64,000 bases of DNA, from contig OZ242272.1 of assembly GCA_965207135.1 (NCBI GenBank), positions 2,437,336 through 2,501,335 on the forward strand, in the 5' to 3' direction. Below, piece after piece: positions 12,518 to 54,593 of the stretch (its first letter is position 1; every line of letters begins with the position of its first letter). A program made the translations under genes and the position numbers. This stretch comes from Chloroflexota bacterium. Lineage in GTDB: Bacteria; Chloroflexota; UBA11872; VXOZ01. The notes beneath the pieces are model-generated. The model was given only the letters and a program-made list of their open reading frames with translations. It did not search any database and was not told the DNA's origin.

Positions 12518-13051
12518 CTACTTCACATCCACCGAGAAGAGGAAGTCATTGTCCTGCACGTCGCCGTGACACTCAGTGCAGCCCTGGACTTTGCCCTCGG
12601 CCTCGATCACGCCGTCGGGTCCATACTTAAGAAAGAACCATCCGTTTGCTTCCGCGTTCTCAAAGCCGGCAGGCTTGTACATCACCGTTATGGCAGCCAA
12701 CGTGCCATCGGGCATGAAGTTTTCCTTGACCACCATGCCGCCTTCGGGGATGCTCCCCGCCTTGTCCTCAATTGCCTTCAGCGCAATTGCGTTGAAGTAC
12801 GTGCTCAGCAAGGCGCCGTGGGGATCCTGTCCGGTATACAAAGGCTCAACACCGGGCAGATGCTGCCAAGTGTTCTGAAAGTCCGCTGACCCGAGATACT
12901 CTACGATGGCGGCTCCTTCAGCAGCCGGGGCCTCGGCAGCCATATCATCGGATTCTTGGCTGGCGCATCCTGCTAACAGCAGCATGACCCCCAAGAGTGA
13001 AACACTGAGCAAGACTGCTCTCTTGCGCAGTAGAAGCAAGTTACAACACAT
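12518..13051 (-). CDS. Cytochrome P460-family-like lipoprotein (c-type haem CXXCH)
   Basis: The ATG at 13051 is preceded by an AGGAGG RBS. The protein starts MCCNLLLLRKRAVLLSVSLLGVMLLLAGCAS (signal plus lipobox), has IPEGGMVVKENF, and carries the CTECH haem-binding motif about 20 aa from the C-terminus. The track ORF's extended 5' part (to 13309) was rejected. Confidence 0.55.
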   Translation of the reverse strand: MCCNLLLLRKRAVLLSVSLLGVMLLLAGCASQESDDMAAEAPAAEGAAIVEYLGSADFQNTWQHLPGVEPLYTGQDPHGALLSTYFNAIALKAIEDKAGSIPEGGMVVKENFMPDGTLAAITVMYKPAGFENAEANGWFFLKYGPDGVIEAEGKVQGCTECHGDVQDNDFLFSVDVK

Positions 13052-13159
13052 GCAATACCTCCTACCTAAGTTAAAACGAATCGTAAGTTGTGTATGATGG
13101 TACTGTGTTGCTTTGGCAAATATATGTAGGCTGAGCGACAAGCTCACCGAGAGAGTGCC

Positions 13160-13891
13160 ATGAGCGCGCTTAGTAAACTGCTGCCGACCAAGAGTCGCAG
13201 CCCCATCGCGAGCCGAGACGAGCGCACGGCACTGCTCATGCGCTATCTCATTCACTTTGATCTCTTTCGAGATCTCACCAAGTCTGAGATGGAGCGCCTG
13301 TTTGGGCATTTGCCCATGTACTCCTTCGCCAAAGATACCCTTGTCTACACACCTGACGACAGAAGCGAAAACCTCTATATCCTTAAGATGGGTGCCGTCG
13401 ATATCTACAGACTGAGCGAAGAGGGTAAACGCCTGAGCATCCGCCGCGTGTTCATGGGCAGTGTATTTGGCGAAATGGGCCTACTCGGACAGTCGATGCA
13501 CGGCTGCTTTGCCGAGACGGTCGCTCCCAGCCTCGTGTGCGTGATGACACGCGTTGAGATGGAGGGCCTCCTGCGCCAGCGTCCCGACGTCGGCCTGCGC
13601 TTCTTCAAGGTGATTGGAGACCGGCTCAAGTCGCTTGAGGACCAGTTGGCGCGCCTTGCGTTCAGCCCGGTGCGTGCTCGCGTTGCAGCCTTCCTCCTCA
13701 CCCATATAGACCCGGCATCGAACGAGGTTCGGGGCTTCACGCACGAAGAAATCGGCGATAGTATCGGAGCGTTACGATCCACAGTCACGCAGACTCTTGG
13801 GGAATTAGCGCGCATCGGTCTGCTTGAGGTAAAGCATAAGCGCATCCATGTGCGCAACTTACAGGAACTTTCAGTCATGGTCAGGGAGTAA
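13160..13891 (+). CDS. Crp/Fnr family transcriptional regulator, with no N-terminal Cys cluster, so Dnr/NnrR-like rather than FNR
   Basis: It has a cNMP-binding-like N-terminal domain and a C-terminal HTH ([19 protein letters not shown]). It is divergent from the P460-like gene. Confidence 0.75.
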
Positions 13892-42836: not shown

Positions 42837-43505
42837 ATGCGCGATCCCATCAGACATCTCAAGGCCCTCGCATTTGCGTTGACGGTTTTCCTAATCACGT
42901 CATTCGCCGGCGCCCAGTTTCGCCCCCAGCTCTTTCCCTTCATGCCGTATGTGTGGCCGTATATTGCGGGCGGCTCCTTGACTTATACCGGCACGGACCT
43001 CGCTATCGCCCCCGCTCCGTCATTTGCGCTCCAGAACCAACGAGGAGAGCAAGTTTCCCTGGACGACCTGCGCGGGAAATTGGTCGTCCTCACGTTTCTC
43101 GACCCGCTGTGCACCGATGATTGCCCGCTCATAGTGCAGGAATTGGCCGCTGCCTATGCGCAACTGGGCGCGCTTGCCCAGGAGGTTGTGATTGTCGCCA
43201 TTAATGTCAACCCCGATGCGCAGACCCAATTCGAAATGGAGTCCTTCTTTCGGACCCAGGGCCTGGACGAGAATTCAGCCTGGCATTTCGTAGGAGGAGA
43301 GTGGGCGGAGGTGGCTGAAATCGTTGCGGCGTACCATGTGTCAGCGGGCGACCCCAAACCCAGCAAGCCGGGCGAGGTGGCGCATCAAGATGTGGTATTT
43401 CTCATCGACCGGCAAGGCAACTACCGCGTGCTCATCACGCATCCGACGCCGGTGGGGGTCTCTCTGCAGGACGTCATACTGCAGCGGCTGCGGGAGCTAG
43501 GGTAG
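42837..43505 (+). CDS. SCO1/SenC family copper chaperone (thioredoxin fold, CxxxC)
   Basis: It has the GKLVVLTFLDPLCTDDCPL motif. Confidence 0.75.
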   Translation: MRDPIRHLKALAFALTVFLITSFAGAQFRPQLFPFMPYVWPYIAGGSLTYTGTDLAIAPAPSFALQNQRGEQVSLDDLRGKLVVLTFLDPLCTDDCPLIVQELAAAYAQLGALAQEVVIVAINVNPDAQTQFEMESFFRTQGLDENSAWHFVGGEWAEVAEIVAAYHVSAGDPKPSKPGEVAHQDVVFLIDRQGNYRVLITHPTPVGVSLQDVILQRLRELG

Positions 43506-44729: not shown

Positions 44730-45236
44730 GTGAGCACGTTAGACCTTCTCCGTGTCGCACTGCGCTGGATGCACCTGACTGCAGCCGTAGTGTGGATAGG
44801 CGGCACGCTCTTCTACGTCATGGCGATACAACCGTCAGTAGACACTGCGGAGAAGGCGGCTGGTTGGCGGAGAATTCGCCAGGGGGTCGAGCAACAGTTT
44901 CATGAAATCGTGCAGGTATGCATTTGGACGTTCTTCATATCCGGCGCCATCCTGACGTACGATCGTTTGACGTCCGTGAACCCGGGCTTGGACTACATAG
45001 CCGCCCTGGTGGTTAAGGTACTATTAGTACTGTGGATGGTATACATTTCCGGCGGATTGCGGCGGTCGGGAGCCCGCAAGCCAATTGGCTCAGCGAACAA
45101 GAAGCCATCCTCCGCCGGGAGCGTATTTCAGCGGCTGCGTTCGCCGGTGCTTCAAATCGCCATAATCGGCGTCATAGTATTGTTGCTGGCCGATCTCCTT
45201 AAGGTCCTGGCGGAGAACGCACTGCGTCCCCTTTAA
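44730..45236 (+). CDS. CopD-like small membrane protein (putative)
   Basis: It has a GTG start and 4 TM helices. The first helix carries H..AAVVWIGG, as in CopD-family proteins. Confidence 0.35.
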   Translation: MSTLDLLRVALRWMHLTAAVVWIGGTLFYVMAIQPSVDTAEKAAGWRRIRQGVEQQFHEIVQVCIWTFFISGAILTYDRLTSVNPGLDYIAALVVKVLLVLWMVYISGGLRRSGARKPIGSANKKPSSAGSVFQRLRSPVLQIAIIGVIVLLLADLLKVLAENALRPL

Positions 45237-45257: not shown

Positions 45258-45722
45258 ATGGCAAATGAGGTTGTAGTTGCATGCGCAGGCGGGAATAGCC
45301 GTCGCACGTTCGACGTTAAGATCATCGTAGGCGGTATCGTCATCCTCTTGGCGGTGGCCTATTTGGTCGTGGCTGCGCTGCCGTCGGGGACTGCGTACTA
45401 TCTGACGGTGAGTGAATTGGCTGATATGGGCGAACGCGCGCAAACCCAGCAAACACGCGTCTCCGGCAACGTGGTACCAGGCACCATCGTGCGCAGTGCC
45501 GATTCCCAGGACATTCGCTTTCAAATTGAGGATGAGAGCGGCCGTCTAACTGTGGTGTTCAGCGATGTCGTCCCCGACATCTTTGGCGATCACACGCAGG
45601 TCGTTGTGGAAGGCACGCTCGGTGAGGATGGCATCTACAGCGCCGAAATCCTCTTAGCCAAATGCCCGTCGCGCTTCGAAGAAGCCGCCCCAACCGGTAG
45701 TGAATACACGAAACCCGGTTAG
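45258..45722 (+). CDS. ccmE: Cytochrome c-type biogenesis haem chaperone CcmE, variant with Cys in place of the haem-binding His
   Basis: It has an N-terminal anchor and an OB-fold core (GNVVPGTIVRS...IRFQIEDESGRLTVVFSDVVPDIFGDHTQVVVEGTL). Its C-terminal LLAKCPSRFEE aligns to E. coli VLAKHDENYTP. Confidence 0.65.
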   Translation: MANEVVVACAGGNSRRTFDVKIIVGGIVILLAVAYLVVAALPSGTAYYLTVSELADMGERAQTQQTRVSGNVVPGTIVRSADSQDIRFQIEDESGRLTVVFSDVVPDIFGDHTQVVVEGTLGEDGIYSAEILLAKCPSRFEEAAPTGSEYTKPG

Positions 45723-45975: not shown

Positions 45976-46299
45976 ATGATCATTGCGACGACGGCACAAA
46001 TTCCGGGTAAGCGCGTGACCGCCGTAAAGGGCCTTGTGCAGGGCAACACAATCCGTTCTCGGCACGTGGGACGGGACATCATGGCGGCATTCCGGAATAT
46101 TGTCGGCGGAGAAATCGCTGAGTACACGCGGCTCATGACAGAATCTCGCAAGCAGGCCGCAGACCGCATGGTGGCTGAGGCAGAAGGGTTGGACGCAAAC
46201 GCGGTGATAGGCGTCCGGTTCGTTACTTCGATGGTGATGTCGGGGGCATCGGAGTTGCTGGCCTACGGCACGGCGGTGGTCATTGAGGATGACGTCTGA
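45976..46299 (+). CDS. YbjQ/UPF0145 family protein
   Basis: The 107-aa ORF has the characteristic length and Gly-rich pattern (NAVIGVRFVTSMVMSGASELLAYGTAVVIE). Confidence 0.65.
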   Translation: MIIATTAQIPGKRVTAVKGLVQGNTIRSRHVGRDIMAAFRNIVGGEIAEYTRLMTESRKQAADRMVAEAEGLDANAVIGVRFVTSMVMSGASELLAYGTAVVIEDDV

Positions 46300-46569: not shown

Positions 46570-48585
46570 ATGACGGCTAACCTCGGCACAGCCTTACTCT
46601 TCATTGCCTTTTTGGCAGCCCTTTACGGCGCGGTTGCGTCTGTGCTGGGTGCACGACTGCGGGTGCCGGAGTTGGTTGTGAGCGCACGCAACGCCGTAAT
46701 TGCCGTTGCCGCCCTCGTGGCGCTGGCCGCGCTCACGCTCATGTACGCCTTCGTAACGCATGACTTCAGCCTGAAGTACGTTGTCGCCCAAACGACCCGT
46801 TCTCAGCCGTGGCCGTACCTTTTCAGCGGCTTCTACGGCGGTCAGGCGGGCTCCTTGCTCTACTGGTCGCTCACGCTGGCGTTGCTCTCAACGGTAGTTG
46901 TGCTGGTTCATTTTCGCTCGGACCGGCAGCTCATTCCCTATGTCATTGCCGTCCTCCTGACCATCGAATCGTTCTTTCTCGTCGTGCTGAACTTCATCTC
47001 GTCGCCATTCGAGACGGTGTTCCCCGTGCCGCCCGATGGACGCGGTCTCAACCCGCTGCTGCAAGATCCCGGCATGCTGATACACCCGCCAATGTTGCTC
47101 GCCGGGTACATGAGCGTTTCCATTCCGTTTGCCTTCGGCATAGCCGCGTTAGTTACGGGCCAGGTGAATAACCGCTGGCTCCAGGCGACGCGCCATTGGG
47201 CGCTGCTGGCCTGGCTCTTTCTTTCGCTGGGCAATCTGCTGGGCGCCTGGTGGGCCTACCACGTCCTCGGCTGGGGCGGTTACTGGGGCTGGGACCCGGT
47301 GGAGAATGTCGCGATCTTGCCCTGGTTCGCCATGACTGCCTACGTGCACTCGGTGTTGGTGCAAGAGCGTCGCGGCATGCTCAAAGTTTGGAACATGATC
47401 CTAATCATCGTGGCCTTCAACTTGGCTGTTTTCGGAACATTTGTGGTGCGGAGCGGTATTCTGGCTTCCGTTCACTCCTTTGCCGTATCCGAAATTGGGC
47501 CGTACTTCTTTGGGTTCCTGGCCGTCAGCCTGATCGTCTCACTCACCCTGCTCATGCTGCGCTTGCCCCAACTGCGCGACGAGCATAACTTCGACTCCAT
47601 GCTGTCCCGGGAGGCAACTTTTCTCTTCAACAACCTACTCTTGGTGGCGGTCATTTGCGTCACTTTCCTCGGCGTGATCTTTCCGCTGCTCTCGGACGCC
47701 ATCCAAGGACGGCAAATCAACGTCGGTCCTCCTTTCTACCAGCAGGTCAATGGGCCGCTGTTGCTTGCCCTGGTCGCACTCATGGGCTTTGGCATGCTGG
47801 TTCCCTGGCGGCGGGGCGCAGCCCGGGCCCTCTTTCGCGGACTACGCGTCACAGTGCTTGGCACGGCCGTGATTACTATCATCGCTATTGTGCTTGGCGC
47901 GCGCTCGCCCTGGACGATTCTCAGCATCGCTGCCTGTTCATTTGCGTTAGTAGTGGCCCTCAGGGAATTTCACCGCACGGCCATTGCGCTCATGCGGGCG
48001 CAACAGACGCCGTATCCCGCCGCATTGCTCGCGGTCTTTCGCTACAATCGCCGCCGCTACGGCGGGTATCTCGTCCACGTCGGGATCGCGATCATGGGCC
48101 TGGCCATCATTGGTTCCTCTTTCTTCCAGGCTGAGCGCTCCGTGAGCATGCGTCCCGGTCAGAGCGTGGCGGTCGGTCAATACACCGTGGCGTACCAAGG
48201 CCTCACCACGTGGAGCGAGCCGGGCAAGCAACGGACCATTGCCTCCCTGCTGGTACGCAATGCAAACCAGTCCTTTGAAGTAGCGCCGCAGAAGGTTGTC
48301 TATCAGAATTGGGAAGATCAGCCCATCAGCGAGGTCGTAATCAAGACGGTCTATCCGCAATTCGACGACGTGTACATTGTGATGGCGGCTTATGGCGAAG
48401 ACGGCACGGCGAGCTTTCACATTTTCGTGAACCCGCTGGTCGCGTTCCTCTGGCTCGGCGGCGCGCTCCTCGTGCTCGGAGGGCTAATCTCGTGGTGGCC
48501 GTCTCCAGCGACTTCGCCGACGACGGCGCCAGCGGCCGCTGGCCTACGCGCCAGGCGGCTGGGGCCGGACACCGTCTCGACTTAG
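46570..48585 (+). CDS. ccmF: Cytochrome c-type biogenesis protein CcmF (haem lyase subunit)
   Basis: The 671-aa polytopic membrane protein has a CcmF/NrfE-like N-terminus and Trp-rich WWD-type segments. Confidence 0.85.
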   Translation: MTANLGTALLFIAFLAALYGAVASVLGARLRVPELVVSARNAVIAVAALVALAALTLMYAFVTHDFSLKYVVAQTTRSQPWPYLFSGFYGGQAGSLLYWSLTLALLSTVVVLVHFRSDRQLIPYVIAVLLTIESFFLVVLNFISSPFETVFPVPPDGRGLNPLLQDPGMLIHPPMLLAGYMSVSIPFAFGIAALVTGQVNNRWLQATRHWALLAWLFLSLGNLLGAWWAYHVLGWGGYWGWDPVENVAILPWFAMTAYVHSVLVQERRGMLKVWNMILIIVAFNLAVFGTFVVRSGILASVHSFAVSEIGPYFFGFLAVSLIVSLTLLMLRLPQLRDEHNFDSMLSREATFLFNNLLLVAVICVTFLGVIFPLLSDAIQGRQINVGPPFYQQVNGPLLLALVALMGFGMLVPWRRGAARALFRGLRVTVLGTAVITIIAIVLGARSPWTILSIAACSFALVVALREFHRTAIALMRAQQTPYPAALLAVFRYNRRRYGGYLVHVGIAIMGLAIIGSSFFQAERSVSMRPGQSVAVGQYTVAYQGLTTWSEPGKQRTIASLLVRNANQSFEVAPQKVVYQNWEDQPISEVVIKTVYPQFDDVYIVMAAYGEDGTASFHIFVNPLVAFLWLGGALLVLGGLISWWPSPATSPTTAPAAAGLRARRLGPDTVST

Positions 48586-48596
48586 GGAGCCACCGG

Positions 48597-49199
48597 ATGG
48601 AAATCCCTGCCACTCAAGAGAAGCAGTTTGTCGAACAGCGGTCCGCTGTTGGCAACCAATCCTTCCGCATTGCAGCGGGTCTAGCTAAGGCGTACTCACT
48701 TTCCGCGACAGCCTTGGCGGCGCTCTTGCTGGCCGCGCTGCTCCTCCACACCGGGCTGACCGCGGCCTCAGCCGCCACCATCGACGAACAAACTGTGGAA
48801 ATTGCCAAACAGCTCAAGTGTCCGGTCTGCCAGAACGTGCCGGTCGCTTACTCCCAATCGCAACTTGCGGTAGAGATGCGCCAGGTGATTCGCGAAAAGG
48901 TGGCGCAAGGTGAGAGCGAGGACGCCATCATCCAGTACTTTGTAGACCGCTACGGCGAGGACGTCTTGCTGGAACCCCGGCGGGAAGGATTCGGTCTCTT
49001 GCTGTGGGTGACATCCGTCGGCGTGGTGGTGTTTGGCGCCGTCGTCGTTGCCATAGTGCTCTGGAACTGGAGCCAGGCCCGCCCGGTGTCAAGGCCCGTC
49101 GCTGCATCGCCGGCAGACTCCGACACGCCAGCGTCCAGCGAACTCGAGCAACTCTTTGAGGAAGAGTACGCGCGCTACAAGCGGGGCAAGCGGATATGA
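48597..49199 (+). CDS. ccmH: Cytochrome c-type biogenesis protein CcmH/CycL
   Basis: The ATG at 48597 follows a GGGAG RBS. It has the LKCPVCQN (LRCxxC) redox motif plus a C-terminal TM helix. The track ORF's 5' overlap with ccmF was rejected. Confidence 0.8.
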   Translation: MEIPATQEKQFVEQRSAVGNQSFRIAAGLAKAYSLSATALAALLLAALLLHTGLTAASAATIDEQTVEIAKQLKCPVCQNVPVAYSQSQLAVEMRQVIREKVAQGESEDAIIQYFVDRYGEDVLLEPRREGFGLLLWVTSVGVVVFGAVVVAIVLWNWSQARPVSRPVAASPADSDTPASSELEQLFEEEYARYKRGKRI

Positions 49200-50500
49200 G
49201 CATTGCAGTCTTTGGCAGCGTGATCGGTGCGGCCGCGTTGCTCTGGATTCTCTGGCCGCTCGTGCGGCGCAACGGTTTCTCCACGTCGTCCCGCGAAGAG
49301 AGCATCCGCGACGACCTTGCCGAACGCACGCTGTTGCTCTATCAAGAGCTCGAGGAAATAGACCTGGAGCACGAGCAAGGCGACCTCACCGCGGACGAAT
49401 ACGCGAGTTTGCGCGAGGCACAGAAGCAGCGTGTGCTTGCACTCCTCGAGTCCCGCCAGCGGGAATCAGAAGCGCTTAGCAGCACCGCCGCCAGCAGCGA
49501 TCCCGATGCTATGAGCGACGCGATTGAACGAGAAATCCTGCGTATTCGCGCGCGGCGCCGGGGACAGCAGGACATCTCTGACGGCTCGCAGCCTAATGAG
49601 CAAGCCCTGTCACCCCTGGGATCACGAAAACTGCGTTGGCTGTGGCTTGGTGTGCCCGCCGCCCTCGTGCTGCTTGCGTTTGGCGCCATCTTCCAACTCT
49701 ACCAGTCCTCCGCCCGTATCCTCACCGAGCAAACCCCCATCGTTCAGATTGACGTGTCGGAACTCGTGGGCTTTGCCTATGTCGGCCCCGACCACGTGCT
49801 GCTGGCAAGCGCGAGCGGCCTCCGGGAGAGCCGCGACGGCGGACGCACGTGGGTGGAAACCGCTCGGGACGTCGCGCCTGCCGCTATGGCAGTGTCGCCT
49901 GCAGGCGCTGGCTTTGTGTACGTTTTCACAGAGAATAGCGTGCATTCTACGTCAGACGCCGGACAGACCTGGCAGGAAGTGCAGGGCACGCTGCCGGGCA
50001 CGGACATCCTCGCTGCGGCAGTAGACCCATTCGCGCCGACCCAACTCTACGCGAGTTTTGCCGAGACCGGGCTGCACCGCTCGCGCGATGGCGGCGCCAC
50101 CTGGGAACCGGTGCCCACGCCTGATGACGAGACGATTGTGGCAATCCTGGTTGGCGACGTGCCGCCGCTGGTCTTTATTGCGCGGGAATCGGGTAGAGTG
50201 CAAGTGAGCAGCGACGAGGGTGAAACGTGGGCAGCCGCCAGCGGCGCCGTCACTATGGCGCTGCGCGGGCCGGTGCGCGCGCTGTCCGGCGCAGCGGACG
50301 GCAGCATGCTATTCGCGGCGTCCCATACCGGCCTGTACATGTCCACGTCGGCCGGGCAGACGTGGGTAGACCTCCCGTTGCGCAAGCCGCTGACCGCAGT
50401 TACAGTAGACCCAGCTACGCCTCGGACAGTACTGGCCGTCACGGAGTCAGGCGAAGTGTACCGCAGCACCGACGGCGGCATCGCTTGGAGAGACGAGTGA
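49196..50500 (+). CDS. Bitopic membrane protein with a CcmI-like N-terminal module (TM - WPLVRR - coiled G.L...EY..LR....R.L.LL - TM) fused to a periplasmic BNR/Asp-box beta-propeller
   Basis: There are six S/T-x-D-x-G-x-T/A-W Asp-box motifs (SRDGGRTW, SDAGQTW, SRDGGATW, SDEGETW, TSAGQTW, TDGGIAW). It overlaps the ccmH stop by 4 nt. Confidence 0.6.
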   Translation: MSIAVFGSVIGAAALLWILWPLVRRNGFSTSSREESIRDDLAERTLLLYQELEEIDLEHEQGDLTADEYASLREAQKQRVLALLESRQRESEALSSTAASSDPDAMSDAIEREILRIRARRRGQQDISDGSQPNEQALSPLGSRKLRWLWLGVPAALVLLAFGAIFQLYQSSARILTEQTPIVQIDVSELVGFAYVGPDHVLLASASGLRESRDGGRTWVETARDVAPAAMAVSPAGAGFVYVFTENSVHSTSDAGQTWQEVQGTLPGTDILAAAVDPFAPTQLYASFAETGLHRSRDGGATWEPVPTPDDETIVAILVGDVPPLVFIARESGRVQVSSDEGETWAAASGAVTMALRGPVRALSGAADGSMLFAASHTGLYMSTSAGQTWVDLPLRKPLTAVTVDPATPRTVLAVTESGEVYRSTDGGIAWRDE

Positions 50501-52032
50501 TGGCGCGAGCCGCGCATAGGAATTCTGCGAATCGCGTCGACGATACGTCGCTCCAGCCAAGGCGTCCTTCTCTCAACACACCAATTCCGCCACCCCCGTG
50601 TACACGAGACTCTGACATGGCATTCAATTCGTCATCCTCCCCTGGGAGGTCTTCTCTTGACCCAACAAATCCTTCGTTTCCCCAAGGGCGAGAAACTGCT
50701 GGCGCAAATAGTCCGTCATTCCCGCGCAAGCGGGAATCCATCCTTGCCGGCGCTGCCGCAGACTCAGAGTCCAACATCCTCTCGTCCCTGCCGCACTCCT
50801 TGTCTCTCATCCGCCGGGCAGCGTGCCTCTTTCTCGGCATGCTACTGTTTCTCTTCCACTTTGCCGCGGTCGCGGCGGCAGAGAACGGCGTCGTAACCGG
50901 TACGGTCATCAACGGCACTGAGGACGGCAGCGCGCCTGCGGACGTAGCAGTAACCCTCTACTACCTGCGTAACGGCGAGATTGTGGAGCAACGCACGCAG
51001 GTCACTGACGCTGCGGGCGTGTACCGCTTCACTGAGATTTCCACAGAGCCCACGCTGACATTCGTGGTTGTGGCTGCCTACGGGCAAGTGCCCTACAACT
51101 CCCCAGAGCTGCAGTTCGGGGAGAGTACGGAAATCCAGGCGCCGCCGCTCGCGGTGTACGAAGCCAGCCAGGATGCGAGTGTGGTGCGGGTGGTGACCGA
51201 TGTATTATTCGTCGCCCCGGGAGAAGAAGGGAGCGGCATGCTCGGCGTGATCGAGGTTGTGAGGCTCGCGAATGACAGCGATCGCACCTACCTCGCAACC
51301 GGCGTTGCCGGCGGCGGCGCGCCGATGAATGTGCTCCGTTTTGCACTTCCTGCCGACGCAGAGGACCTCACGATGCTCAGCGGTCTCAATTCGCAAAATG
51401 TGGTGCAGATCGATCGCGGCTTCGGCGTCTTCATGCCGCTGCTGCCAGGCGAACGCGAAGTAGCCTTCGGCTATCAGCTCCCGTACTCCGGCAGCACGCT
51501 GGAGCTCAACAAGCGCACGGTCTATCCCACCGATCATTTCGCCATTCTTGCCCTCGAAGAACATGCGCTGCAATTCAATTCAAGTCAACTTGAAGTGCAT
51601 GCCACGCCAATCGGCGACCGCCGCTACTTGGTGGGCGCCGCAAACTCTCTGACAGCGCGTGCGGACGTAAGCGTGCAAGTCGCAGGCTTGCCTGCGCCCT
51701 CCCTGCAAGTCCGGTTCGAGCGGCTCTTCGCTCGTGTCCGCGCTGCTCAAGCGACTTTCTTCATCCTACTGGGCATTGTTCTGGTCTTGCCCGTCCTCTA
51801 TGCCGTCTATCGCATGCGCGGCGGACTGCGGCGCAGAGTTGCGCGGACCTCCGCGTCCGCTGTCGCCGCGCCAGACGCGCAAGAAGCCCTGCTCCTCGAA
51901 ATAGCCCAACTTGATGATGACTTTGCCGCAGGCGGCTTGGCAGAAGACGAGTACCGGAAATTGCGCGCGGACAAGAAGCAACGCTTGCTTGAACTCTATG
52001 GCGAGCCGGGCAGCGAGGCAGACGATGGGTGA
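50500..52032 (+). CDS. Envelope protein with carboxypeptidase-regulatory-like beta-sandwich domain, C-terminal TM helix and cytoplasmic CcmI-like motif
   Basis: It has VVTGTVINGTEDGSAPADVAVTLYYLRNGEIVEQRTQVTDAAGVYRF and a C-terminal ...TM-RMRGGLRRR...LDDDFAAGGLAEDEYRKLRADKKQRLLEL. The start is uncertain among the ATG at 50500 (ATGA-coupled to the upstream gene), a TTG at 50800 giving a clean signal peptide MSLIRRAACLFLGMLLFLFHFAAVAAA, and an ATG at 50839. Confidence 0.45.
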   Translation: MARAAHRNSANRVDDTSLQPRRPSLNTPIPPPPCTRDSDMAFNSSSSPGRSSLDPTNPSFPQGRETAGANSPSFPRKRESILAGAAADSESNILSSLPHSLSLIRRAACLFLGMLLFLFHFAAVAAAENGVVTGTVINGTEDGSAPADVAVTLYYLRNGEIVEQRTQVTDAAGVYRFTEISTEPTLTFVVVAAYGQVPYNSPELQFGESTEIQAPPLAVYEASQDASVVRVVTDVLFVAPGEEGSGMLGVIEVVRLANDSDRTYLATGVAGGGAPMNVLRFALPADAEDLTMLSGLNSQNVVQIDRGFGVFMPLLPGEREVAFGYQLPYSGSTLELNKRTVYPTDHFAILALEEHALQFNSSQLEVHATPIGDRRYLVGAANSLTARADVSVQVAGLPAPSLQVRFERLFARVRAAQATFFILLGIVLVLPVLYAVYRMRGGLRRRVARTSASAVAAPDAQEALLLEIAQLDDDFAAGGLAEDEYRKLRADKKQRLLELYGEPGSEADDG

Positions 52033-52759
52033 TTCTGACGGTGCTGCAAGTCTTGCCGTGGAGGCCCTGGGGCTGGCCAAGAATTACGGTCTGCAAGTTG
52101 CGCTGGATCAAGTAAACCTCTCTCTGGGCGAGAAAGAGCGTTTGGCTGTCCTCGGCCCCAATGGTTCTGGTAAGACAACGTTGATTTCCGTCCTGAGCAC
52201 GGCCATGCGACCGTCGGCGGGCACGCTGCGCATCATGGGCTACGATAGTGCAGACGCCCCGAACGACGTGCGCCGGCACATCGGTGTCGTCGCGCATCGC
52301 ACCTACCTGTACGAAGAGCTATCGGCACGGGAGAATCTCGTTTTCTACGGCCGTCTCTTTGGCATTTCTGACCTTGCCGCGCGCGCAGATATGCTGCTAG
52401 ACCTTGTGGACATCTACGCGCGCCGCCACGATCAGGTAGGGAGCTTATCCCGCGGTATGCAACAGCGCGTGACTCTTGCGCGCGCCTTGATCCACGATCC
52501 CGCCGTGCTTCTGCTTGACGAACCGGACACGGGCTTGGATCAGGAACACCTCGATCTGCTTGCTTCTCTTGTCACCGGCAGCAAGATTCCACCGCGAGCC
52601 GTTATCCTCACCACGCACAATCTGGAGCGTGCGCTCGACCTCTGTCACCGGGTTGCGGTGCTCGCGCAAGGGAGGCTCGCGTACCAAGCCGAGAGCGCGT
52701 CCCTCGATCGCACGGCATTGCTTGACGCCTATCGCCGCCTGGCAGGAGCAGCCAAGTGA
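52025..52759 (+). CDS. ccmA: Haem exporter ATP-binding protein CcmA (ABC ATPase)
   Basis: It has the GPNGSGKTT Walker A, LSRGMQQRVTLARA signature and LLLDEP Walker B. The ATG at 52025 overlaps the upstream gene's end by 8 nt. Confidence 0.8.
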   Translation: MGDSDGAASLAVEALGLAKNYGLQVALDQVNLSLGEKERLAVLGPNGSGKTTLISVLSTAMRPSAGTLRIMGYDSADAPNDVRRHIGVVAHRTYLYEELSARENLVFYGRLFGISDLAARADMLLDLVDIYARRHDQVGSLSRGMQQRVTLARALIHDPAVLLLDEPDTGLDQEHLDLLASLVTGSKIPPRAVILTTHNLERALDLCHRVAVLAQGRLAYQAESASLDRTALLDAYRRLAGAAK

Positions 52760-53424
52760 ACCTTGCCGTACGACAGGTATTGGCGGTAGTGCAAAAAGAC
52801 CTCATGGTGGAGATGCGCGCGCGCGACCTGCTGAACGTGATGCTGACGTTTGCGGTGCTCTCGCTGATAATCTTCAACCTTGCCTTGGACCTGCGCGGGC
52901 CGACGGTTCACGAAGTGGGGCCGGGGTTGCTGTGGCTCACAATCGCCTTTGCCGCCATTCTGGGTATGGGGCGGACATTCGTGCGCGAGCATGACCGCGG
53001 CACACTTGACGGACTGTTGCTCGCGCCAATCGACCGGGGCACACTCTACATTGCGAAGCTGCTCGCCAACCTCATCTTCCTTTTCATCATGGAAGCAGTC
53101 GCCCTACCCATGTTCGCCTTGCTGTTCAATCTGCCGGTGCTCCAGCCGTCCGTGATTCTCATAACTGTGTGTGGCACGCTGGGCTTTGCCATTCTGGGCA
53201 CAACGTTCTCCGCCATGGCGGCGCACAGCCGCGCGCGTGAAGCGTTGCTGCCGCTCTTGCTCTTGCCCACGACCGTACCCATAATCATCGGCGCCGTACA
53301 GGCTACAAGCTATGCGATCAGCCGTACGGAAGGCGGCCCCCCCTGGCTGGGCCTGCTCATTGCCTTTGACGTGATATTCTTCACCCTCTCATACTTACTC
53401 TTTGCACACGCCGTTGAAGGATGA
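52756..53424 (+). CDS. ccmB: Haem exporter membrane protein CcmB
   Basis: The 222-aa, 6-TM protein shows the CcmB family pattern. It overlaps ccmA by 4 nt. Confidence 0.8.
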   Translation: MNLAVRQVLAVVQKDLMVEMRARDLLNVMLTFAVLSLIIFNLALDLRGPTVHEVGPGLLWLTIAFAAILGMGRTFVREHDRGTLDGLLLAPIDRGTLYIAKLLANLIFLFIMEAVALPMFALLFNLPVLQPSVILITVCGTLGFAILGTTFSAMAAHSRAREALLPLLLLPTTVPIIIGAVQATSYAISRTEGGPPWLGLLIAFDVIFFTLSYLLFAHAVEG

Positions 53425-53664: not shown

Positions 53665-54396
53665 ATGCACTTGCAGGAAAGGAAGCAAACGGCGGTGAGT
53701 AGTATTGATAGAGGCGCGCGGCGATGGGTAGATGACATTCTTGGCGTTGCCACGCTGGTCGGCATGGTGGCGGCACTCTGGCTTGTTTTTGTCTACACGC
53801 CCGTAGAGCTTGTGCAGGGCGCCGTGCAGAAGGTTTTCTACATCCACCTTGCCTCCATTTGGAACGCATACTTGAGTTTCTTCCTCGTCTTCGTGGCGAG
53901 CATCCTCTATCTGCGACGGCCGAGTGCGGCTACAGATCGGTTCGCGCGCGCTTGGGCGGAAATCGGCGTGATCTTCACAACCATCACACTCATCAGCGGC
54001 GCGATTTGGGGCAAGCCAACCTGGGGCACGTATTGGACGTGGGATCCCCGGCTTACCACCACACTCCTCCTCTGGCTCATCTACGTGGTCTACATCATGC
54101 TGCGCGGCTTCGTGGGCGATCCCGAGCGCGGGCGGCGCTACGCCGCCATCGTAGGCATCATCGGCTTCATCGACGTGCCCATCGTGCACATGTCCGTACG
54201 CTGGTGGCGCACGCTGCATCCCGACCCAATCGTAGCCAGACTAGAGGGTCCGGAATTGCCAATGAGCATGTGGTACACGGTGCTCTACTGCATCGTGGTG
54301 TTTACGCTTTTGGCAGTCTTCTTGGTGCGTCAGCGCCTGCAAATCGACGAGTTGCGGGAAAGCCTCCTCGCGCTACGTTTGTCCCCGAGACAATAA
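53665..54396 (+). CDS. ccmC: Haem exporter protein CcmC
   Basis: It has the WWD-domain signature WGKPTWGTYWTWDPRLTTTLLLWLIY and conserved His residues. Confidence 0.85.
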   Translation: MHLQERKQTAVSSIDRGARRWVDDILGVATLVGMVAALWLVFVYTPVELVQGAVQKVFYIHLASIWNAYLSFFLVFVASILYLRRPSAATDRFARAWAEIGVIFTTITLISGAIWGKPTWGTYWTWDPRLTTTLLLWLIYVVYIMLRGFVGDPERGRRYAAIVGIIGFIDVPIVHMSVRWWRTLHPDPIVARLEGPELPMSMWYTVLYCIVVFTLLAVFLVRQRLQIDELRESLLALRLSPRQ

Positions 54397-54413: not shown

Positions 54414-54593
54414 ATGGATACGCTACAAAACCTTGACTACCTTTTCGCCGCGTTTGCCATATTCTGGGTGGTGATCTTCGGCTACTTCTTTTACATCACC
54501 AGACAACTGGGTGAGCTGCGGCGTGAGGTGAAGGCACTTCACGAAGAACGCGCACGCGATGCATCGGACCCGGATGCACCGTCGGGATACTAG
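54414..54593 (+). CDS. ccmD: Haem exporter protein CcmD (small single-TM protein)
   Basis: The 59-aa protein is MDTLQNLDYLFAAFAIFWVVIFGYFFYITRQ... It has an AGGAA RBS and lies immediately after ccmC. Confidence 0.7.
   Translation: MDTLQNLDYLFAAFAIFWVVIFGYFFYITRQLGELRREVKALHEERARDASDPDAPSGY

Follow-up and report, generated by a model that had tools for sequence, protein, structure and literature searches.

A Cys-x3-Phe CcmE encoded together with a CXXC CcmH: a documented minority form of the Cys-type haem chaperone that is standard in Chloroflexota

The subject of this article is the ccmE gene at 45258-45722 (+) of a 64-kb stretch of contig OZ242272.1 from an uncultured Chloroflexota bacterium (hereafter "the window," meaning that whole stretch). 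It encodes a 154-amino-acid protein of Pfam family PF03100 in which a Cys (Cys136) occupies the position of the haem-binding His and a Phe (Phe140) that of the Tyr ligand, four residues on (+4). We abbreviate this motif C..F, and its Tyr-bearing counterpart C..Y. Among Cys-type (System I*) CcmEs the window protein is of a documented minority form, which is the norm in Chloroflexota; it does not represent a new kind of system. As read from the sequences, it belongs to the CcmE family, its two motif residues are equivalent to the canonical pair and deeply conserved, and the catalytic residues of its partner proteins are intact. Taken together with the behavior of better studied Cys-type proteins, this makes it probable that the gene encodes a functional, membrane-anchored Cys-type haem chaperone in an otherwise canonical System I, in which Cys136 would form a thioether to haem and Phe140 would not ligate the iron.

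The window protein is a CcmE by sequence and by predicted fold, motif-bearing C-terminal tail included. The Pfam model is matched at 91.5 bits against a gathering cutoff of 24.6, with residues 46-142 on model positions 2-98/99, and in a phmmer search of PDB chains the significant matches are CcmE structures only (1j6q/1lm0 at 2e-11, 8ce8_E at 6e-9, 1sr3 at 3e-8, and 2kct at 3e-5). The AlphaFold2 model (mean predicted local distance difference test score, pLDDT, of 71) has a helix at 20-40, five strands within 66-134, and a tail with pLDDT below 50; the layout is that of a cytoplasmic N-terminus, a transmembrane helix (20-40), an OB-fold beta-barrel (66-134), and a flexible tail (135-154). Foldseek searches with this model place four CcmE structures among the top five PDB matches (8ce8_E, 1lm0, 1sr3, and 1j6q), with 2kct ranking 10th. 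The protein resembles canonical Escherichia coli CcmE (H130xxxY134; 1sr3, 8ce8) in fold, membrane anchor, position of the motif in the tail, and partner proteins. It differs from it in having Cys and Phe in place of the His and +4 Tyr that characterize the His-type protein, in an identity of 27%, and in scoring below cutoff on all eight NCBIfam CcmE equivalog models (50-77 bits vs 126-310; the best is 77 vs 126).

The motif itself, K135-C136-P-S-R-F140-E-E (45660-45683, +), lies in a translation whose C-terminus reads ...EILLAKCPSRFEEAAPTGSEYTKPG; Cys136 is encoded by TGC (45663-45665) and Phe140 by TTC (45675-45677). The phmmer alignments put LAKCPSRF on LAKHDENY of Shewanella CcmE (1j6q) and on LAKHDE of the E. 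coli protein (8ce8_E and 1sr3), and the KCP of the window protein on the KCP of the Desulfovibrio vulgaris Cys-type CcmE (2kct). A MAFFT alignment of the window protein with E. coli K-12 CcmE (from NC_000913.3) and 15 relatives equates C136 with H130 and F140 with Y134. With the alignment of homologues described below, three independent alignments agree on this register, which bears out the original prediction, made from the DNA letters alone, that LAKCPSRF is a Cys-x3-Phe in place of His-x3-Tyr. A misalignment that hides a nearby, shifted His/Tyr pair was considered and ruled out; the three alignments concur, and the sole later Tyr lies 14 residues downstream.

The pair of residues is widely conserved. 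A word-indexed search of 5.8 billion proteins returned 55 homologues, 37 of which were aligned with the window protein (38 sequences, down to ~38% identity). In this alignment Cys136, Pro137, Ser138, and Phe140 are each at least 90% conserved, and 35 of the 38 sequences have CPS[RK]F, the exceptions being P0049 (CPSKY), P0053 (CPTKY), and a frameshifted P0028; only 2 of the 37 homologues have Tyr at +4. Close relatives, where the original prediction had proposed to look for the same C...F, thus carry it. When 1.84 billion cluster representatives (50%-identity clusters) were scanned exhaustively with HMMER, 2781 matches were obtained, and the best 150 were taken. The 147 usable sequences comprise ~108 with CxxxY, 31 with CxxxF, 3 with CxxxM, 1 with CxxxL, and 4 of His-type with F or M at +4, and within the best 150 those nearest to the window CcmE are C..F sequences. 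The homologue alignment and this census are our unbiased sources of motif frequencies. In a neighbour-joining tree of the 147 representatives (~105 columns) the C..F sequences fall mostly together, the window protein is placed unstably, and Fitch parsimony counts 16 changes at +4; the tree is too noisy for the number of independent Tyr-to-Phe events to be read from it.

A scan of one genome per GTDB species added taxonomic breadth. It returned 128 relatives, and the best 80, inspected as loci (L numbers below), are all from Chloroflexota: Anaerolineae, Phototrophicaceae, Aggregatilineales, Sphaerobacteraceae/Thermomicrobiaceae, Chloroflexia, and the window's own clade, whose members are 73-92% identical to the window CcmE. 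In related protein clusters the members bearing names are likewise Chloroflexota. KCPSRFEE is found in 80/80 of these loci, a count biased by ascertainment since KCPSRFEE was a search seed; we use these loci for taxonomic breadth, operon context, and codon variation only.

It is the codons that dispose of the simplest objection, namely that Cys and Phe come from an error of sequencing, from a mutation private to one strain (two cautions that the original prediction had itself attached), or from decay of the gene. The Phe codon TTC is indeed one base from Tyr TAC. However, the same residues recur in dozens of independent assemblies, at 97% to ~35% identity and with different synonymous codons, and the ccm operon around ccmE is intact and conserved. 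Every codon of the motif varies synonymously (Phe TTC 26 and TTT 55; Cys TGC 69 and TGT 12; Ser both AGY and TCN), which indicates purifying selection on the amino acids. Conservation and codon usage together rule this explanation out, and its remaining chance is negligible.

Two further sets of relatives depart from the usual +4 residue in other ways. Four His-type CcmEs, 34-38% identical to the window protein, also have no Tyr there (P0132, VKHDASF; P0158, TKHPTKF; P0200, VRHPDRF; P0118, TRHPDTM), so that loss of this Tyr is not confined to Cys-type proteins. The Cys-type CcmEs P0066, P0070, P0074, and P0071 have Met (CPSKM) or Leu (CPSRL) at this position; a Met could ligate iron, and a Leu cannot.

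The second element of the original prediction, a CcmH with LKCPVCQN three genes downstream, was confirmed as well. This ccmH (48597-49199, +) follows ybjQ and ccmF, matches PF03918 at 104.9 bits, and has a GGGAG-like site upstream of its start codon; Cys75-Pro-Val-Cys78 (48819-48830) corresponds to Cys43/Cys46 of E. coli CcmH. Where Chloroflexota C..F loci extend far enough beyond ccmF, 67 of 68 encode CcmH, always with the motif C-[PML]-x-C. As a control, metagenome contigs were scanned with an alignment of CPSKY-type CcmE, in replacement of single C..Y and C..M representatives that stood on contigs of 1-8 kb. The gene directly after ccmF passes the Pfam CcmH threshold in 16 of the 21 informative C..Y loci, at 62-78 bits. 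Bacterial Cys-type CcmEs thus commonly have a partner of the CcmH family, with Tyr as well as with Phe at +4, and the premise that Cys-type systems typically lack CcmH does not hold for the bacteria sampled. The literature had already moved in this direction: Stevens et al. 2011 (FEBS J; PMC3601427) found CcmH in about a third of bacteria with a Cys-type CcmE and withdrew its absence, which dated from the 2006 description of System I*, as a characteristic feature. For bacteria, the textbook equation of a Cys-type CcmE with the absence of CcmH is outdated.

The two samples differ in the form of CcmH. Of 26 CcmH sequences in the CPSKY sample, 23 have C-x-C-G-C and 3 have C-x-C-G-x-C where CXXC would be expected, a contrast that is essentially one between two clades and cannot be read as co-variation yet. 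These genes stand directly after ccmF in LAKCPSKY-type clusters of metagenome loci L086-L155, for example, L087 4030-4626, L091 12414-12923, and L103 12480-12977. This variant may explain the early "no CcmH" reports.

The remainder of the cluster is a complete System I in the order ccmE-ybjQ-ccmF-ccmH-(CcmI-like)-X-ccmA-B-C-(D), and the same gene order is seen in ~70 Chloroflexota loci. The ccmF gene (46570-48585, +), for the haem lyase/haem b reductase subunit, matches Pfam CcmF_C at 205.8 bits and Cytochrom_C_asm at 129 bits, and its product matches Thermus thermophilus CcmF (6zmq) with E 7e-104. In pairwise alignment His172/260/302/503 correspond to E. coli H173/H261/H303/H491, and the protein has a WWD motif, WGGYWGWDPVEN. 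The ccmC gene (53665-54396, +) matches Cytochrom_C_asm at 125.2 bits, with His61/His185 equivalent to E. coli H60/H184 and the WWD motif WGTYWTWDPRL in place. All of the E. coli haem-handling and redox residues that we listed for CcmC, CcmF, and CcmH are thus identical in the window partners by pairwise alignment. Among the aligned Ccm proteins, to judge by these residues, CcmE alone departs from the canonical pattern.

How does this arrangement relate to known systems? The closest are the System I* proteins of D. desulfuricans and D. vulgaris (2kct; Allen et al. 2006 and Goddard et al. 2010, as reviewed by Stevens et al. 2011). The window CcmE shares with them the OB-fold, the Cys for His, and the K-C-P-S-[KR]-x-E context; 2kct is matched both by sequence and by fold, and nearly all of the 150 closest representatives in the database are of Cys-type. 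It differs in having Phe at +4 (CPSRF) where the Desulfovibrio type has Tyr (CPSKY), and in its gene context, because the operon tested experimentally lacks CcmH and CcmG, whereas the window cluster has a CXXC CcmH. Set against the description of System I*, the window has the Cys in place of His, but not the +4 Tyr nor the missing CcmH. Since Phe replaces Tyr in 4 of the 36 Cys-type CcmEs counted by Stevens et al. 2011 (PMC3601427), Phe140 is a minority state within the family and not grounds for exclusion from it. Cys-type CcmE of archaea offers a second comparison. The Methanosarcina acetivorans protein (C120xxxY; PMC9084895) likewise has Cys at the haem-attachment position, and by this analogy attachment in the window protein may be covalent too. 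Archaea, however, retain the Tyr, and CcmD, CcmH, and CcmI are absent from all of them (PMC9084895), whereas the window encodes CcmH, a CcmI-like protein, and probably CcmD.

The combination of C..F with CcmH is not itself new. Stevens et al. 2011 (PMC3601427) placed Cys-type CcmEs in delta-proteobacteria and noted that "chloroflexi and firmicutes also feature"; with the two counts cited above, their article already documents C..F, CcmH alongside Cys-type CcmE, and System I* genomes of this same phylum. It gives counts only, with no sequences, taxa per motif, or experiments for C..F. Shevket et al. 2018 (PMC6204919) describe Tyr134 as "almost entirely conserved" and report Phe there in ~3% of CcmEs. 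Of the "unusual variant" of System I in the original prediction there remains the replacement by Cys and Phe with a CXXC CcmH in the same cluster; that the combination is unusual or unrecorded is not borne out by these articles or by our census. What is new here is only that C..F with a CXXC CcmH, in a ccmF-ccmH context, is the standard configuration in Chloroflexota, of which the window is one more example.

A cycle consistent with these data can be proposed. CcmC, with CcmD, would hold haem b between its two histidines and its WWD loop; the CcmE tail would enter this site, and the Cys136 thiol would add to a haem vinyl group to give a thioether. CcmAB would then release holo-CcmE, which would dock on CcmF, where two periplasmic histidines would ligate the haem, while CcmH (through CPVC) and the CcmI-like protein would bring up the reduced CXXCH of the apocytochrome. 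Phe140 cannot coordinate iron, since it has no lone pair to offer. It would probably preserve an aromatic, hydrophobic contact by which the tail is oriented against the face of the porphyrin, and this lineage would not need the motif to supply a phenolate ligand. The iron of free holo-CcmE could be solvent-ligated, five-coordinate, or transiently bound to a residue of the tail. The covalent step we infer from the Desulfovibrio and Methanosarcina proteins: D. desulfuricans CcmE binds haem covalently, as relayed in PMC3601427, and attachment of haem to M. acetivorans CcmE depends on the Cys of its CXXXY motif (Gupta et al. 2022; PMC9084895). The non-ligating role of Phe140 is suggested by its side chain, and the tail counts given below support the view that the motif need supply no ligand. 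As regards the E. coli protein, Shevket et al. 2018 (PMC6204919) found Tyr134 "not essential" but important for efficient formation of holo-CcmE.

A number of points weigh against this proposal. In the E. coli model of Li et al. 2022 (PMC9616876), holo-CcmE is released through a ligand switch from CcmC P-His2 to Tyr134; such a model needs the Tyr134 ligand, and Phe cannot perform the switch. The tail of the window protein does contain a Tyr, Tyr150 (C+14; codon 45705-45707, +), a candidate alternative axial ligand that is kept in 13 of the 14 closest genome loci within x-Y-[AT]-x-P-G and is missing from L010; in Anaerolineae, the His of a terminal IPEH is kept in 42 CcmEs. Either residue could be a displaced ligand, each in its own clade. 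The D. vulgaris Cys-type CcmE, as reported via PMC3884852, bound ferric haem only non-covalently in vitro. Our literature search found no dedicated study, experimental or other, of a C..F CcmE. Finally, the data on this genome are those of the 64-kb window, and a second, canonical ccmE may lie outside it, as may CcmG/CcdA or System II.

The first alternative to follow from these points is that the axial ligand was moved rather than lost, with Tyr150, or the IPEH His in Anaerolineae, ligating the iron of released holo-CcmE. We take this possibility seriously but find it rather doubtful. The predicted disordered tail would be long enough to fold back, and beyond the near-constant Tyr150 and the 42 IPEH proteins, a His, Tyr, or Met follows the motif in 72 of the 80 KCPSRFEE loci, although most of these genomes come from two clades and cannot be tallied as independent events. 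Against this, L010 belongs to the same clade and does without the Tyr, and no counterpart of Tyr150 is found in other C..F CcmEs, which limits it to the window's immediate clade. His, Tyr, Met, and Cys are all absent past the motif in 45 of 79 C..F CcmEs, and several C..F proteins stop 2-4 residues beyond the Phe (for example, KCPSKFES, KCPSKFETT, and KCPSRFET). A substitute ligand from CcmE is thus not a general requirement. Tails with such residues make up 34/79 of the C..F proteins, no larger a share than the 51/110 of the C..Y proteins, in which the +4 Tyr is already present. The "no Tyr ligand" of the original prediction is therefore sound for the canonical +4 position but overlooks Tyr150 at C+14. 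Its companion caveat, that a His or Tyr might stand elsewhere in the tail, proves apt for the window's clade and for Anaerolineae and inapplicable to the many C..F proteins with no such residue.

The other alternative dispenses with the covalent bond as well as with the Tyr: haem would be carried non-covalently, with the Cys136 thiolate as axial ligand, by analogy with the in vitro behavior of the D. vulgaris protein. Stevens et al. 2011 (PMC3601427) remark, too, that a thioether would be hard to break. In vivo, however, the Cys-type CcmEs of D. desulfuricans and M. acetivorans are described as binding haem covalently, as judged by haem staining, in a Cys-dependent manner (as relayed in PMC3601427, and in PMC9084895), and CcmC, CcmAB, and CcmF of the window keep all residues of the pathway that runs through a covalent intermediate. 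We consider non-covalent carriage very unlikely. A Cys136 thioether with a non-ligating Phe140 accordingly remains the reading that we prefer.

The interest of this protein lies in the natural combination of Y134F with H130C, which a whole phylum has fixed within otherwise canonical CcmC/F/H machinery. It provides a ready-made test of whether holo-CcmE needs its tyrosinate ligand and whether release by CcmABCD needs the ligand switch. One may go further and suppose that Chloroflexota run System I with no iron ligand from the CcmE motif, so that the switch from P-His2 to the CcmE Tyr is not universal (either no CcmE ligand is needed, or Tyr150 or the IPEH His took over), and that the +4 residue may co-vary with the CcmH motif (C..F with CXXC, CPSKY with C-x-C-G-C). 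We offer this broader proposal as speculation that is unlikely to hold in full. If true, such co-variation would hint at a coupling between haem hand-over and apocytochrome thiol chemistry.

Turning to the other genes of the region, two lie upstream of ccmE. A Sco1/SenC-like thioredoxin-fold protein with CxxxC (42837-43505, +; Pfam SCO1-SenC, 63.6 bits) has counterparts 5' of ccmE in L001-L017 except L015. Directly upstream of ccmE is a CopD-like membrane protein (44730-45236, +), with weak CopD matches below cutoff, which is kept 5' of ccmE in L001-L017, distant Chloroflexota included. The presence of these two genes beside ccmE suggests that genes for copper delivery and haem c maturation are linked. 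Between ccmE and ccmF stands a ybjQ-family gene ("putative heavy-metal-binding"; 45976-46299, +; Pfam YbjQ_1, 126.5 bits), which is at this position in just half of the 14 closest loci (the seven loci L001, L002, L006, L009, L010, L011, and L014).

The gene after ccmH (49196-50500, +) encodes a fusion of a CcmI-like N-terminal module (transmembrane helix, cytoplasmic coil, transmembrane helix) with a BNR/Ycf48-like beta-propeller, the latter standing where CcmI normally has tetratricopeptide repeats. The module scores 24.5 bits on TIGR03142 over residues 10-93, under the cutoff of 29.3, and the protein has BNR, Sortilin-Vps10, and PSII_BNR matches in Pfam. This fusion is kept only in the 14 closest genomes (L001-L014). 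Next, just upstream of ccmA, is a conserved membrane protein that we call X (50839-52032, +), with no match in Pfam or NCBIfam. Its start is uncertain, and a TTG at 50800 would add the n-region of a signal peptide. The layout is that of a secreted beta-rich domain, a C-terminal transmembrane helix, and a CcmI-like cytoplasmic coil (LLLEIAQLDDDFAAGGLAEDEYRKLR). Homologues were found by tblastn in 40 Chloroflexota loci, 5' of ccmA where listed, and the one in L018 (14088-15977; BLASTP E 7e-10) has an extra N-terminal CXXCH cytochrome c domain. Protein X may be a phylum-specific Ccm accessory protein.

The cluster continues with ccmA, for the ATP-binding cassette ATPase (52025-52759, +; ABC_tran, 106 bits), whose start is presumptive and whose position is kept across loci, and with ccmB (52756-53424, +; Pfam CcmB, 121.1 bits). 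After ccmC comes an open reading frame of 59 amino acids (54414-54593, +) with one transmembrane helix and a charged tail. It has no Pfam match, but it is found directly 3' of ccmC in 16 loci and is similar to E. coli CcmD in size and layout; it is probably a divergent ccmD. No CcmG/TlpA-like gene was found in the window ccm cluster, the rest of the 64-kb window having been only partly scanned with Pfam.

Some minor observations on these genes can be added. In L018, the only Anaerolineae locus inspected for this, a thioredoxin-like gene (13185-13754; WCPPC, CcmG/TlpA-like by motif) follows ccmH. In four loci of Anaerolineae type (L024, L032, L039, and L042) ccmABC comes next after ccmE, and neither ccmF nor ccmH was detected in the interval; the lyase genes may be elsewhere or replaced. 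A homologue of protein X was seen in L024, L032, and L042. Finally, the window encodes at 12518-13480 (-) a protein that combines a single CXXCH with a cytochrome P460 domain (42.7 bits) and is a likely substrate of the window Ccm system.

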